The translations under genes were made by a program, and so were the position numbers. Positions 8,104 through 38,536 of a DNA stretch of 64,000 bases are shown in pieces (the stretch's first letter is position 1; each line of letters starts with the position of its first letter). This DNA comes from Candidatus Parcubacteria bacterium (lineage in GTDB: Bacteria; Patescibacteriota; Minisyncoccia; Phycocordibacterales; Zambryskibacteraceae). The stretch spans positions 43,290-107,289 of the forward strand of contig JAIFWJ010000001.1 of assembly GCA_019661865.1 (NCBI GenBank), written 5' to 3'. Below the pieces are notes generated by a model. That model had not been told where the DNA came from and did not search any database. It saw only the letters and a program-made list of their open reading frames with translations.

Positions 8104-8958
8104 ATGCGTATTGTAGGCAAGAGGTCGGCTCTTCGAACTCCGGAATTCCATAAGAAGAAGGAGTTTCAGAAGAAGGTTCGGGTTGTTCTTGGTGTTGTGC
8201 TTCTTACACTCATACTGGTAGCTCCTCTTCTAGCACTTAGGAGTAAACGTCTTCAGATTGTAAAAGTTGAGGTGAAAGGCAATAATGCAGTTAAATCAGA
8301 AGATGTGGGAAATCTGGTCAGTAAAGACTTGGAAGGAAGTTTCGCTTTCGTTATTCCTAAGTCTTCCACACTCTTTTATCCAGAGAAAAAGATAAAAGCG
8401 GACCTCCTAAGTTCATTCCCGCGCCTCTCTGCTGCCACCTTGGCTCTCAAGGGTACACATACTATCTCAGTATCCTTAGAGGAGCGTTCACCAGTAGCGA
8501 TATATTGCAAGGATGTTTCTAATAGAAACGAGCCCCAGTCTTGCTACTTTATGGATGATAGTGGATTCATATTTTCGGATGCAGCAGTGTTCTCCGGTGG
8601 TATTTACCCAGTCTTCACGAGTCAGCCCCTGCTCCAGAAACCCATGGGACAGAGTTTAGTGTCTAAGGAAGAGTTTAAAGTACTAATGAAAATATGGGCA
8701 GACATAATAAAACTCGACCTCTCGCCTAAATATATTTCCAGAGTTAATGATGAATACAGCATGGGACTTGCAAGTGCCACAAATATTTTATGGAAATCGA
8801 GCCAGGACGAGAGCGAGTTTATCTCGAACCTAGATTCTTTTCTACATTCATCCAAGACAGCCGGAGCTACACAATTAGACAATTTAGTGTATATTGACTT
8901 GCGATTTACTAATAAAGTTTTCTACAAGTTTCGAGTAGACTCTGGGGATAATATATGA
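8104..8958 (+). CDS. ftsQ: Cell division protein FtsQ-like (N-terminal TM plus POTRA and beta domain)
   Basis: One TM segment (VVLGVVLLTLILVAPLLAL), then a POTRA-like region (VEVKGNNAVKSEDV...ATLALKGTHTISVSLEERSPVAIY). Confidence 0.55.
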   Translation: MRIVGKRSALRTPEFHKKKEFQKKVRVVLGVVLLTLILVAPLLALRSKRLQIVKVEVKGNNAVKSEDVGNLVSKDLEGSFAFVIPKSSTLFYPEKKIKADLLSSFPRLSAATLALKGTHTISVSLEERSPVAIYCKDVSNRNEPQSCYFMDDSGFIFSDAAVFSGGIYPVFTSQPLLQKPMGQSLVSKEEFKVLMKIWADIIKLDLSPKYISRVNDEYSMGLASATNILWKSSQDESEFISNLDSFLHSSKTAGATQLDNLVYIDLRFTNKVFYKFRVDSGDNI

Positions 8959-9926
8959 GTAATGGATTTTGGGAAAATTTAAAGAGGCCAATTTTCGTAT
9001 TGGCGCCTATGGCCGATGTTACTGACGCGGCCTTTCGTCGTATCATTAACCAATATGGTAAACCAGATATTTTCTACACTGAGTTTGTATCTGCAGACGG
9101 TCTAGCCCTTGCCAGAGAGGAGGGAAGAAAGAAACTTCTTAAAGATTTAGAATTTAGTGAGGCCGAGCATCCCATAGTTGCGCAATTCTTCACTGCTAGT
9201 CCTGAGCATATGAAGAAGGCTGCAGAGCTAGCACGGAGTTTGGGCTTCGATGGTGTAGATATAAACATGGGTTGTCCGGATACGTCTGTAGTACACCAGG
9301 GCGCGGGTGCATGCCTTATAGAAACACCTAAACTTGCTAGAGAACTTATACGAGCGGCGAAGACAGGTGCAGGAGATCTTCCTGTGTCTGTGAAGACTCG
9401 CATAGGATTCAATAAACCTGAGCTTGAAGAGTGGTTACCAGAGTTACTGAAAGAGGACCCTGCTGCAGTAATCATCCACGCACGCACTAAGAAAGAGATG
9501 TCCAAGGTTCCTGCACGTTGGGAGTTCGTAAAGCGTGCGGTAGAAATTAGAGATAATTTAAATTCTAAAACTCTCATCCTCGGTAATGGTGATGTGAAGG
9601 ATCTAGAAGAAGCCCGCAGACGAGTAAAAGAGACTGGGGCAGATGGCGTAATGCTTGGGCGTGCGATATTTGGGAACCCGTGGTTGTTTTCAGAAAAAAT
9701 TCCAACACTGAAAGAAAAACTTAAAGTATTAGTGGAGCACACAAAACTTTTTGAAGAATTGCTTGGCGAGGTGAAGAGCTTCAATATCATGAAGAAGCAT
9801 TTCAAGGCATATGTAAATGGTTTCGATGGTGCACAGGACTTGCGAGTCAGGCTTATGGAAGCTAAAGATGCAAATGAAGTAGGAGATATTGTGGATAACA
9901 TCTTTGACTCGCAGGTTATAAATTAA
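8955..9926 (+). CDS. dus: tRNA-dihydrouridine synthase
   Basis: FVLAPMADVTDAAFRR...DINMGCP...K-R TIM-barrel Dus signature. Confidence 0.9.
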   Translation: MSNGFWENLKRPIFVLAPMADVTDAAFRRIINQYGKPDIFYTEFVSADGLALAREEGRKKLLKDLEFSEAEHPIVAQFFTASPEHMKKAAELARSLGFDGVDINMGCPDTSVVHQGAGACLIETPKLARELIRAAKTGAGDLPVSVKTRIGFNKPELEEWLPELLKEDPAAVIIHARTKKEMSKVPARWEFVKRAVEIRDNLNSKTLILGNGDVKDLEEARRRVKETGADGVMLGRAIFGNPWLFSEKIPTLKEKLKVLVEHTKLFEELLGEVKSFNIMKKHFKAYVNGFDGAQDLRVRLMEAKDANEVGDIVDNIFDSQVIN

Positions 9927-10124
9927 TACTCTGAAGATACGCAGGGTACGGACTCTCCTTAACCGAGGACCCGGGCGTATGCTCATTCATCGAATGGGAG
10001 GTGATCTGATCTAGGTGCCTCTCTCCTTGGATCAGCCCTTCGATCCTCTCTGACGCATAGCGTCTTCACGGGGCCTAGTCATAGACTAGGCCCTTAACTC
10101 TCCATAAGGTCAAGCATATATTAT

Positions 10125-10152
10125 TTGACAAATTAATTACTTGGTTTATAAT
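10125..10152 (+). promoter_or_regulatory. Near-consensus sigma70 promoter (TTGACA-16nt-TATAAT)
   Basis: ttgaca at 10125-10130 and tataat at 10147-10152 with a 16-nt spacer, in a roughly 600-nt gene-free gap. Confidence 0.55.
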
Positions 10153-10158
10153 ACTTCA

Positions 10159-10405
10159 AGATTCGGGTGAGGGCGATAGGTCAATAAGGGTGGTTTGCAC
10201 AGTACGAAGGCTCGGAAAGGCCCCTCGTTGTTAACTTTATTGCTTATCGTTACTCACCCAGCTTGTGGGGCCAGCCGTTCCGAATGATTGAATTAGTGCG
10301 ACCCGGAAATTCGCACTTATGAAATCTGAGGCGCGGCTGCGCCCGGCATTTATACCTACTAAGGTATTTCTGTAGGTATTTCCCGAGTTTTGGCTCGGGT
10401 TTTTT
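10159..10405 (+). ncRNA. Candidate structured noncoding RNA of about 250 nt, family unassigned
   Basis: Bounded by the consensus promoter and the intrinsic terminator. No ORF above 15 codons. Several perfect hairpins: gtgcga-cccggaaat-tcgcac, ggcgcggctgcgcc, tacctac...gtaggta, and a possible long-range helix gggtgag(10165-71)/ctcaccc(10253-59). Confidence 0.35.
10382..10405 (+). terminator. Intrinsic terminator
   Basis: cccgag-ttttgg-ctcggg followed by TTTTTT. Confidence 0.65.
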
Positions 10406-10544
10406 AATAATTTTTTAGTAAATTTTCCATAATACGGAGTCGAAAGAATAGGTTGACAGTTGCGTCTTTTATGATAGAAAGGGGCGAGATCCCCTTAAGT
10501 TCTTATACAGTGTTCTAGAGCGCGAGAGCGCAGGAGCGTGCAGA

Positions 10545-12245
10545 ATGCGGAAGTTGACCCTATTCCTAACTGCCTTAGGTCTCATAGTGAGCTGTAAAAA
10601 CAGCATCACTATTGATGACAAGGCGGTTGCGGGAGGAGGTGGAGGTGGGGGCGGAGGAACAGGACCGTGTTCTCTGAACTCCACAGTCACAGTCTCTCCA
10701 AAGTCGAACACACTCGTTGTGGGTTCGACCATGCAGGGCACGGCTACGTGGAACTGTGATGGAAAGGTCGAGTGGTACTCAACAGACGGATCGCGAGTAG
10801 ATGTGATTCATTTCGACACAACTTATGTGAACTCTCAGTTCCCATGGGGTGTCGGAACATTCAAGGCCGGCTTTATCAAGGCCTTGGCACCAGGACAAGC
10901 AGATGTCTGTGCGAAGCTGGTACTCTTCCCGAGTGTCCACGACTGCATGCACATCACAGTTACTGGCACTTCTACGACAGTCACAGTCTCAAGTGTGAAT
11001 GTTACTCCGCAAGGAGCGACAATCTCACTCTCGCTATCAAGCGGGACATGCTCGGCGACTCAGCTGTTCTCTGGACAAGTTCTAGGTTCGGACGGTCTTC
11101 CGTACTCGAACCAGGGCTTAACCTGGACCACTTCCGGAGGAGGGATCTCCTCCTCCGGTTTGTTTACAGCTTCGGCTCCAGGTACTTACACAGTTACGGG
11201 AGCATCCGTCGCAGATCCAAATGTGAAGGGCACTGCACAGATCACTGTGTCGGGCTCGTGTCAGCAGACCGGTCCAACGATTAACCCTGTTGGTCCTATC
11301 ACACTTGGTTCCGGTACAGGATGTACGAACAACACTGGAAGTGCATCGATCACGAACGGTGTAGCAGTAACGTGGACGAATTCCAATCCGTCCGTCGTCA
11401 CCGTCACCAGTTCGACTTCGACCACGGTGAACTTCGTATCCGTCTCTGGCACGTCTGGCTCTACCACTATCACAGGTACGGCAGCAAATGGATTGTCAGT
11501 GTCACTCCTGGTGAATGTCTCGAACGCGTCTTGTAACACTGGCGTCATAGCCTTTGGCACTCCGCGTCCAGCAGACACGACCATCATGGCGAACACTCGT
11601 TACCACTTGTATGTACCCTACACGGTGCCTGCAGGTGTGCGTAATGATGTGTTAGTGCGGACAAGCAACTGTCTGGCATATGTCGGTGCTCCGGTTATCA
11701 CCTCGACTGGTACGAACACGTATCAGATTGATCTGACTGTCCAGGGTATCGCCACGTGCCAAGGTGGAGTCATTATTCTCAAGTCTGCAGCAGATACCAC
11801 CATTTCTGTCACAGCGCATGCGAATGTGGTCTCCGCACCAGGACCGACGATCGTCTGTTCTCCGGCATCTGCAAGTGGAGTAGTAGGGACGGGTGGCAGA
11901 GTAATCTGCACCATCTCAGGCTCCACTGACACACGAGTATGGTACTACTCGACGGATCCCTCGCGTGTATCGGTGGTTCAGAAGGATACGACCTTCGCCG
12001 CCGCTACGAACCCGTGGACTGCGGGCTCCCACTTCGGTGGAGAGTATCGCTACATCTGGACAGGTAGTGCAGATGAGTGTGGGTACTCGCCGTCGAACCC
12101 TTCAATCATCGCATGCATTACGCATACGGTGACGGCGGCTTCCGGTAATCTCATAGCCTCGAGCACATTCGAGATTAGAGATCATCCGGTAACGGTTGAA
12201 CTCAACCGCTTGTACACGGCCGTGAGATCTAGGTCTCTGAAATAG
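10545..12245 (+). CDS. Surface lipoprotein with a Gly9 linker and repeated bacterial Ig-like (Big_2-type) domains
   Basis: Signal peptide with lipobox (LIVSC), a GGGGGGGGG tract, then Ser/Thr-rich beta-type repeats (…TVTVSP…, …VTVTGTS…). Confidence 0.65.
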   Translation: MRKLTLFLTALGLIVSCKNSITIDDKAVAGGGGGGGGGTGPCSLNSTVTVSPKSNTLVVGSTMQGTATWNCDGKVEWYSTDGSRVDVIHFDTTYVNSQFPWGVGTFKAGFIKALAPGQADVCAKLVLFPSVHDCMHITVTGTSTTVTVSSVNVTPQGATISLSLSSGTCSATQLFSGQVLGSDGLPYSNQGLTWTTSGGGISSSGLFTASAPGTYTVTGASVADPNVKGTAQITVSGSCQQTGPTINPVGPITLGSGTGCTNNTGSASITNGVAVTWTNSNPSVVTVTSSTSTTVNFVSVSGTSGSTTITGTAANGLSVSLLVNVSNASCNTGVIAFGTPRPADTTIMANTRYHLYVPYTVPAGVRNDVLVRTSNCLAYVGAPVITSTGTNTYQIDLTVQGIATCQGGVIILKSAADTTISVTAHANVVSAPGPTIVCSPASASGVVGTGGRVICTISGSTDTRVWYYSTDPSRVSVVQKDTTFAAATNPWTAGSHFGGEYRYIWTGSADECGYSPSNPSIIACITHTVTAASGNLIASSTFEIRDHPVTVELNRLYTAVRSRSLK

Positions 12246-38108: not shown

Positions 38109-38177
38109 TATAGTAAGTTTGACTTGTTTATAATTATTGTGTTATAATAATAAAAGGATATTTCTATGTGAGGTCAA

Positions 38178-38510
38178 ATGGCTGATCTTGTAACGTGGAT
38201 CTATACACCAGATCAAGCTGCGGAAGTGTACATGATGGAAAAGTATAACGGTGCCCATCCGCATGAGATTGATTACGATCCTGTTCAGGAGTTCTGGACA
38301 CCTGTAGGAATTCTACTTTACTTTCTCGTCTATGATCTGGAACGGGTTTATACCTTGGTTCTTGGATTCAAACATGGGGAAGTAAAGAAGCTATCTCACG
38401 GTCGGATGGCAGTGAATTTCGAACCAATTGAAGGTAGAAATGACCGCAAAGAAATTCTCGAAGAATTAAAGCTTGCGCACGCAGTGCTCCCGATTGAGTT
38501 CTACGAGTGA
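38178..38510 (+). CDS. Hypothetical protein
   Basis: 110 aa; followed by a terminator. Confidence 0.4.
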   Translation: MADLVTWIYTPDQAAEVYMMEKYNGAHPHEIDYDPVQEFWTPVGILLYFLVYDLERVYTLVLGFKHGEVKKLSHGRMAVNFEPIEGRNDRKEILEELKLAHAVLPIEFYE

Positions 38511-38536
38511 GGCGCTCCAGTGGGGCGCTTTTTTAT
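38510..38536 (+). terminator. Intrinsic terminator
   Basis: ggcgctcc-agt-ggggcgc followed by TTTTTTATTT. Confidence 0.55.

Follow-up and report, generated by a model that had tools for sequence, protein, structure and literature searches.

Background

The described bacterial RNAs that come closest to the one reported here are SRP RNA (4.5S, RF00169), 6S RNA (RF00013), the CsrB/RsmZ RNAs and the orphan structured RNA motifs of the Breaker-laboratory style. In Bacillus, dnaX is closely preceded by the gene for SRP RNA. The RNA that we find in relatives of the organism studied here resembles SRP RNA in being a single long rod-like hairpin of ~110-150 nt with a conserved, GGAA-containing apical loop closed by G-C pairs, and in being encoded by a gene that has a strong promoter and lies near dnaX. 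It differs in its loop, which both in the relatives and in the window (the whole 64,000-nt stretch of Candidatus Parcubacteria DNA that was analyzed) is by eye an 8-9-nt CCCGGAA(A)U rather than a GGAA tetraloop. Also missing here are the internal loops, symmetric and asymmetric, that are conserved in SRP RNA (AGCA motif); there is no match to RF00169 or RF01854, the distribution is patchy, and the RNA encoded in the window has three domains instead of one rod.

With 6S RNA, the RNAs described here share a size of 150-250 nt, a largely double-stranded form and an independent gene with a consensus promoter, and the relatives' RNA is likewise closed by pairing of its 5' and 3' ends. A first, sequence-only reading of the window, made by a model, had named a 6S-like RNA as one option; however, the large central bubble by which 6S RNA mimics an open promoter is missing here, the ends of the window RNA are unpaired and Rfam gives no 6S match, and the option is therefore dropped. 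The likeness to CsrB/RsmZ lies in GGA exposed in hairpin loops and in a stand-alone promoter-terminator gene, but here there are one or two GGA loops instead of many, carried on a long rigid rod, the context is CCGGA and not ANGGA, and a linked csrA gene was not seen. As with the orphan motifs, the RNA family described below is defined only by covariation, a conserved loop and gene neighborhood; unlike those in Rfam, it lies outside the 4227 families of Rfam 15 and is restricted to a CPR/Parcubacteria clade.

CPR bacteria (Patescibacteria) have tiny genomes and, to our knowledge, their RNAs beyond rRNA, tRNA, RNase P RNA, tmRNA and SRP RNA are almost unstudied.

Methods

Loci containing dus were fetched from species-representative genomes (80 loci) and from metagenomes (80 loci), and 15 more were obtained via exact-protein look-ups. 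Individual loci are designated by L and a number. Known RNA families were searched for with Rfam 15 and ARAGORN, and sequence relatives with blastn, tblastn, nhmmer and covariance models, of which R1 was built from the window RNA as a single sequence and R2 and R3 from the family in the relatives. Alignments of the family were made either with MAFFT only, followed by RNAalifold, or as a model-guided alignment of six sequences. L167 was left out of the folding of full-length members, being near-identical to L165.

Results

A promoter-to-terminator unit between dus and a lipoprotein gene

The neighborhood in the window is one of housekeeping genes, with dprA, serS, an ftsQ-like gene and dus followed by a gap, a lipoprotein ORF and dnaX, which is the next gene beyond the lipoprotein. 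The product of dus (8955-9926; Pfam Dus, E = 1e-65) is identical to one NCBI Parcubacteria entry, and its next-closest relatives are at most 80% identical. The lipoprotein ORF starts at 10545, encodes 566 aa and had no match in a Pfam search. From the end of dus at 9926 to the lipoprotein start, the gap measures 618 nt, close to the ~600 nt first estimated.

Within this gap, a promoter of the form TTGACA-16 nt-TATAAT lies on the + strand at 10125..10152 and has a sigma-70 score of 12/12, bearing out its earlier description as a textbook promoter. It is the sole perfect match on both strands of the window, where ~0.02 such promoters are expected by chance from base counting, and it has the extensions typical of the family in the relatives (TTGACAAAT and GGTT-TATAAT). 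With its consensus elements, the promoter has a constitutive look. The strong terminator that had been placed about 250 nt downstream is likewise present, as an intrinsic terminator (CCCGAG-TTTTGG-CTCGGG; 7-bp GC-rich stem, 4-nt loop, T6) at 10382..10405 on the + strand, and 48 nt separate its end from the TTGACA of the lipoprotein promoter. The predicted primary transcript is ~248 nt long (10158..10405, + strand), with its start placed 6-8 nt past the -10 element and its end at the T-run. Inside it, the only ORF of at least 30 aa is a TTG-started frame of 30 aa (10195-10287) ahead of which no ribosome-binding site was seen by eye, in agreement with the earlier statement that the interval contains no plausible ORF. 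All sequence features listed in the sequence-only reading were in fact found in the DNA, and positions 10158-10405 probably constitute a gene of their own, whose product is a stable non-coding RNA with a high degree of structure.

Two further features of the window can be recorded here. Only one other promoter approaches the consensus (11/12, extended -10 with TG); in a unit at 38119-38531, it drives a small ORF that runs from an ATG at 38179 to a stop near 38510 and ends at a strong terminator. This is an ordinary small-protein gene, not an RNA gene. The 200 nt from the dus stop to the RNA promoter (9927-10124) have no counterpart in the relatives and a modest fold (z = -2.7), and contain a perfect 10-bp hairpin at 10071-10093 (GGGCCTAGTC-ata-GACTAGGCCC) that lacks a T tract; the dus transcript may end here.

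Predicted fold of the window RNA

The 248-nt RNA has a minimum free energy (MFE) of -105.5 kcal/mol (z = -6.25) on the + strand, against -83.7 kcal/mol (z = -5.45) for the reverse strand of the same interval, and the fold thus favors the + strand, via G-U pairs. It consists of three successive hairpins, the 5' and 3' ends being unpaired with each other, and the three domains are individually significant, with a bias to the + strand in each (z = -5.1, -4.9 and -4.1 on the + strand vs -3.2 and -3.5 on the - strand). The first, SL1 (10165..10259, + strand; 95 nt), is a long near-perfect hairpin with a branched tip, amounting to an almost perfect 30-bp inverted repeat (z = -5.14 on the + strand and -3.19 on the - strand), and one of its tip hairpins reads GGCU-CGGAAA-GGCC. 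In it, GGGTGAG (10165-10171) pairs with CTCACCC (10253-10259); this is the 7-bp long-range pairing noticed in the letters alone, and its helix belongs to the minimum-energy fold. No counterpart of SL1 was found in the relatives with blastn, nhmmer or a single-sequence covariance model and, since it is a nearly perfect duplex, SL1 may have arisen by recent insertion or serve as a substrate for processing, without its fold having been selected.

The second domain, SL2 (10264..10349, + strand; z = -4.91), is a rod-like hairpin and the proposed homolog of the family hairpin. At its apex (10295..10317, + strand), a 7-bp stem (AGUGCGA/UCGCACU) closes the loop CCCGGAAAU at 10302-10310. SL3 (10352..10379, + strand) is a perfect 8-bp hairpin (ATACCTAC/GTAGGTAT) whose support is purely thermodynamic, comparative support being absent for both SL1 and SL3. 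The two segments of a pseudoknot suggested earlier do exist, one base away from the positions first given, at 10217-10224 (AAGGCCCC) and 10267-10272 (GGGGCC). Their pairing with each other did not hold up: both are already paired in the MFE fold, and forcing the proposed pairing as a nested helix yields -80.5 instead of -105.5 kcal/mol, a cost of ~25 kcal/mol that leaves the pseudoknot possible but unsupported.

Comparison with known RNA families and elements

The Rfam scan proposed with the sequence-only reading was run on the window at gathering thresholds and returned two tRNAs only, leaving the RNA gene unmatched and giving no confident match to a known family. At E <= 10, the 750-nt region around it gave only sub-threshold matches driven by the terminator (MicX, SorX and similar), that to MicX reaching 32 bits against a cut-off of 75, and none to 6S, SRP, RNase P, tmRNA, riboswitch or T-box models. 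ARAGORN found the two tRNAs of the window and no tmRNA. The earlier exclusion of RNase P RNA, tmRNA and SRP RNA is therefore upheld, in the case of tmRNA by ARAGORN and Rfam alike. In the relatives, searches of L082, L002 and L005 at E <= 5 gave no known family, and a scan of 17 related loci gave just tRNAs and sub-threshold, terminator-driven matches.

Several specific candidates were considered and rejected. For RNase P RNA, 248 nt is also too short; for tmRNA, neither a tRNA-like domain nor a tag ORF was matched by ARAGORN or Rfam. A cis-acting leader (riboswitch, T-box) is contradicted by the separate conserved promoter between the terminator and the ORF and by the lack of an aptamer match. 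The RNA is not repeated in nearby genes as a DGR template repeat would be, and the neighbors are housekeeping genes, with no adjacent reverse transcriptase, recombinase or TnpB to indicate a retron, bridge RNA or omega RNA. A repeat or mobile element is not indicated either, as the window contains no second copy and weak 9-nt direct repeats are all that flanks the region, and tblastn of all local ORFs against the units in the slot gave nothing to suggest a decayed paralog of the neighboring genes. A blastn search against phage records was empty; as exact strings, a 23-mer from SL1 was absent from metagenome contigs, and a 21-mer from the SL2 apex and an 18-mer from the family apex were absent from viral contigs. 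A literature search turned up no description of such an RNA in CPR bacteria.

A family of rod-shaped RNAs in related genomes

In seven related loci (L002, L005, L082, L163, L165, L167 and L166), the lipoprotein promoter is directly preceded by a unit in which a promoter and a terminator enclose an RNA of ~160-200 nt. At the core of this RNA lies a rod hairpin of 108 nt, whose apex, GG-CCCGGAAU-CC, is invariant. In the full-length folds of all six distinct members, a purine-rich 5' leader pairs with the 3' linker, and the family RNA is accordingly a rod of ~150 nt followed by the terminator.

Covariation, a check proposed at the outset for related intergenic regions, was found in the family hairpin. 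RNAalifold recovered the long hairpin from MAFFT-only alignments, with 14-16 compensatory pairs. In the model-guided alignment of six sequences, 90.7% of cells were paired, compared with 34-45% when the partners were slid, and two-sided changes occurred in 22 of the 41 pairs, values that none of 500 shuffles reached; this alignment was fitted to the structure, and its counts are somewhat inflated. The helix is secure on the strength of the MAFFT-only result and the size of the margin. In two close pairs of loci, the hairpin is also better conserved than the coding sequence of the dus gene beside it (85% vs 79% of nucleotides between L002 and L163, 100% vs 86% between L165 and L167). The family rod, with its invariant loop, is under purifying selection.

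Its distribution is narrow, with eight of the ~30 loci that have the lipoprotein promoter. The family is in neither Rfam 15 nor the searchable literature and is in that sense new among RNAs; we would describe it as a new family of a familiar category, the small structured RNAs of bacteria.

Two observations concern the surroundings of the family gene. Between L165 (3789-4040) and L167 (3793-4044), identity is 100% from the RNA hairpin through the lipoprotein 5' UTR, while the small ORF is only 70% identical, below even dus; either the constraint is very strong or the RNA-lipoprotein module was recently exchanged by recombination. In five family loci (L002 3005-3230, L163 3480-3690, L165 3479-3700, L166 3646-3890 and L167 3493-3700), the interval between dus and the RNA gene contains a basic ORF of ~35 aa (MAAKRLPQWKIALLNKKG...RGGG) and, after it, a long conserved hairpin (GGGUGCCGGUACGGAGGGUUUGGGGGGGACUCCGUGCCGGUUAC) and a terminator; this unit is absent from the window.

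The lipoprotein promoter as the edge of the slot

The downstream edge of the RNA slot is marked by the lipoprotein promoter with its 5' hairpin, which in the window lies at 10453-10497 on the + strand (extended -10, TTGACA..CGTCT..TGATAGAA; conserved segment, 10452-10490), is context and not part of the RNA, and is conserved after dus in ~30 related loci. Its consensus is TTGACA-N9-10-(C)GTCT-TTT-R-TGATAGGAA/TAATAA with a short 5' hairpin immediately after it, and the element was recorded downstream of dus in the window and in L004, L006, L008, L009, L013, L019, L163-L172 and L293. Conservation of CGTCT in the spacer goes beyond what contact with RNA polymerase needs, which suggests a putative binding site for a regulator. 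In L019, by contrast, the transcript driven by a promoter of this type is terminated after ~110 nt and precedes dnaX. Ancestrally, dus appears to have been followed by dnaX. In L009 and L013 the lipoprotein promoter directly abuts dus, so that ~520 nt (9927-10450) are extra in the window.

The linkage of the RNA family to the lipoprotein promoter is constant. In L005, the RNA gene is 1.1 kb from dus and still directly upstream of the lipoprotein promoter, and in L082 the T-run of its terminator overlaps the next -35 element.

Relation of the window RNA to the family

By sequence, the window RNA stands apart. It had no detectable match in 172 dus loci of related Parcubacteria; the intergenic region was compared by blastn and nhmmer with 80 and later 162 loci, leaving the RNA itself unmatched, and model R1 gave no match in 953 kb. 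In the reverse direction, nhmmer with the family profile found nothing in the window, and SL2 outside its loop has almost no sequence in common with the family. L005 is still alignable to the family although its Dus differs from that of L002 about as much as the window's does. The 5' leader and 3' linker pairing that makes the family RNA one rod is not found in the window RNA, which, as a series of three hairpins, is filed as a divergent variant.

The resemblance lies in position, loop and promoter. The window and family units occupy the same slot in the same orientation, each with its own promoter and terminator. The window loop CCCGGAAAU is the family loop CCCGGAAU with one extra A, and it is flanked by five of five possible pairs. 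A search of both strands of 1.43 Mb of Parcubacteria sequence (2.85 Mb of strand) gave 27 occurrences of CCCGGAA(A)T; those with all five flanking pairs are confined to the seven family members and the window, and among the 19 others just one (L114) reaches four pairs and none five. Multiplying the background frequency of the motif (19 in 2.85 Mb) by the chance of five flanking pairs, we estimate that a slot of 250 nt would contain such a hairpin with a probability of ~1e-5. The promoter type TTGACAAA...GGTTTATAAT is shared by five of the seven members and the window and by nothing else in the 1.43 Mb of loci, where the pattern TTGACA-N12-14-GGTTTATAMT has six occurrences, namely the five family promoters and that of the window. 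The same pattern is present in at least 120 viral contigs and is not globally unique; being common in phage contigs, it is supportive of family membership, not diagnostic. Covariance models R2 and R3 can be aligned with SL2 over its full length, and the loops then coincide, but the scores are no more than 9.8-10.5 bits. In a search confined to the slot, no full-length match to the family model is better than SL2 (E about 0.02; 0.018 in 701 nt), yet over 64 kb the E-value is 2.4, and unrelated hairpins in other loci score 10-18 bits, as high as SL2.

The alternative that survives best is that the window RNA is an unrelated orphan sRNA that resembles the family through coincidence or convergence, in a slot that collects transcription units. 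The covariance score, no higher than background, and the missing sequence similarity fit this alternative, as does the slot itself, which elsewhere holds unrelated units of ~700 nt (L004, L293) and ~220 nt (L008) and small ORFs (L168, L169, L172). Coincidence does not easily account for a loop in a fully paired hairpin that is absent from the 2.85-Mb background, nor for the GGTT extension of the -10 element, which in our sample is common only to the family promoters, and we regard an unrelated orphan as unlikely. Homology of the window RNA with the family RNA is what we consider likely, and with good confidence. The window RNA is probably real and narrowly distributed, because it shares position, promoter type and an invariant hairpin loop with the family in related genomes, and it probably belongs to this new, clade-specific RNA family as a divergent and enlarged member. 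The sequence-only reading had offered a lineage-specific RNA as its other option; that option fared well, with a covariation-supported family occupying the same slot in the relatives and having the apical loop and promoter type in common with the window.

Discussion

An RNA gene that may act in trans

Taken as a whole, the observations are best explained by an independent RNA gene that is a divergent, enlarged member of the family and acts in trans, a reading to which we assign a probability of about 0.6. The window RNA would have kept the capped family hairpin as SL2 and gained the 95-nt 5' domain SL1 and the short hairpin SL3. Its consensus promoter would drive the gene and its intrinsic terminator would end it. 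The RNA would then act in trans, a rigid helical rod presenting the invariant apical loop, which presumably serves as the recognition surface for a partner. That partner may more readily be a protein than an mRNA, making the RNA part of an RNP or a sequestering RNA, given that the stems covary freely, that eight loop bases are invariant, that there is no conserved single-stranded seed and that no conserved complementary site was found in the lipoprotein mRNA. Pairing of full-length RNAs with the lipoprotein mRNA in duplexfold gave only meaningless long-loop duplexes, and short complementarities between the two (CGAGGAU, by eye) are not conserved across members. With the palindrome CCGG in the loop, loop-loop dimerization is conceivable.

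A different view of the same unit is that it acts in cis, its strong promoter and terminator tuning the lipoprotein promoter through interference, occlusion or regulated read-through, with the RNA product secondary. The position of the RNA gene, always directly upstream of the conserved lipoprotein promoter even when 1.1 kb from dus (L005), is what such a role would call for, and the overlap of terminator and -35 element in L082 would suit it as well. However, covariation and the invariant loop show selection on the structure of the RNA and not merely on transcription, the terminators are strong, and many relatives (L009, L013, L170) have the same lipoprotein promoter without an RNA unit upstream. 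We consider a role in cis improbable.

The exposed GGA motifs raise the question of a CsrA/RsmA-type sponge, in which a CsrA dimer would be captured by the loops CGGAAA of SL1 and CCCGGAAAU of SL2. The window RNA displays two such loops, the GGA of the family loop is invariant, and a CsrA-like ORF was found in L060 (11662-11844; tblastn with Bacillus subtilis CsrA, E = 7e-10), so that CsrA exists in at least part of this Parcubacteria group. Against this, family members have just one conserved GGA loop, the usual A-N-GGA context is replaced by CCGGA, and no CsrA gene was seen in the window or the family loci; the known sponges CsrB and RsmZ have many more sites. A sponge of this type is very unlikely.

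It is less credible still that the unit is a non-functional relic, an insertion scar or decayed gene that happens to retain a promoter and terminator. The ~520 nt (9927-10450) that are extra relative to L009 and L013 and the almost perfect inverted repeat of SL1 would agree with such an origin, but the window has no other copies, the region has no protein similarity to the neighboring genes, neither the phage records nor the viral contigs gave a match (to blastn and to the SL2 apex 21-mer, respectively), the fold is strand-biased through G-U pairs, and a perfect promoter, a terminator and a family-specific loop are all retained. Finally, a known housekeeping RNA (6S or SRP/4.5S) too diverged for the Rfam models would account for the rod shape and GGAA-containing apical loop of the family, the strong promoter and the presence of dnaX as the downstream gene after the lipoprotein, but can practically be dismissed, with no SRP or 6S match even at E of 5-10 or less, no 3'-side AGCA motif of SRP domain IV, no 6S central bubble, and an RNA confined to a minority of related loci, unlike an essential RNA.

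Implications

The strongest promoter in 64 kb, a structure better conserved than the enzyme gene beside it and constant adjacency to a surface lipoprotein gene make this locus a concrete, testable candidate for lineage-specific RNA biology. More tentatively, and at less than even odds, the window RNA and its relatives may form an undescribed class of CPR/Parcubacteria-specific rod RNAs that present the invariant CCCGGAAU, with its self-complementary CCGG, to a dedicated partner; they would be genetically coupled to a variable surface lipoprotein gene, within a wider, fast-evolving RNA slot that also holds a ~700-nt candidate ncRNA of sister lineages. If so, they would represent an RNA-based layer of control over the cell surface of episymbiotic ultra-small bacteria. 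The alignment and model of the family could seed a new Rfam family. The narrow distribution limits the immediate impact of the candidate RNA, and a broad distribution in CPR bacteria or an identified partner would raise the importance of the family.

Other transcription units in the slot

The slot between dus and the lipoprotein gene is a hotspot for small transcription units. In L004 (4830-5590; = L085) and L293 (3500-4165; = L294, L295), it is occupied by a GC-rich unit of ~700 nt with its own promoter and a strong terminator and without a conserved ORF. Rfam gave no match to the L004 unit at E <= 0.1. Highly conserved blocks alternate with variable stretches between L004 and L293, and the indels are not multiples of three; the unit is a candidate large ncRNA. 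Other, unrelated units occupy the slot in L008 (1821-2070), L168 (3241-3440), L169 (3465-3830), L172 (1140-1285) and L012 (6990-7470), and these are small, of the promoter-terminator type, and either structured RNAs or leader-plus-small-ORF units.
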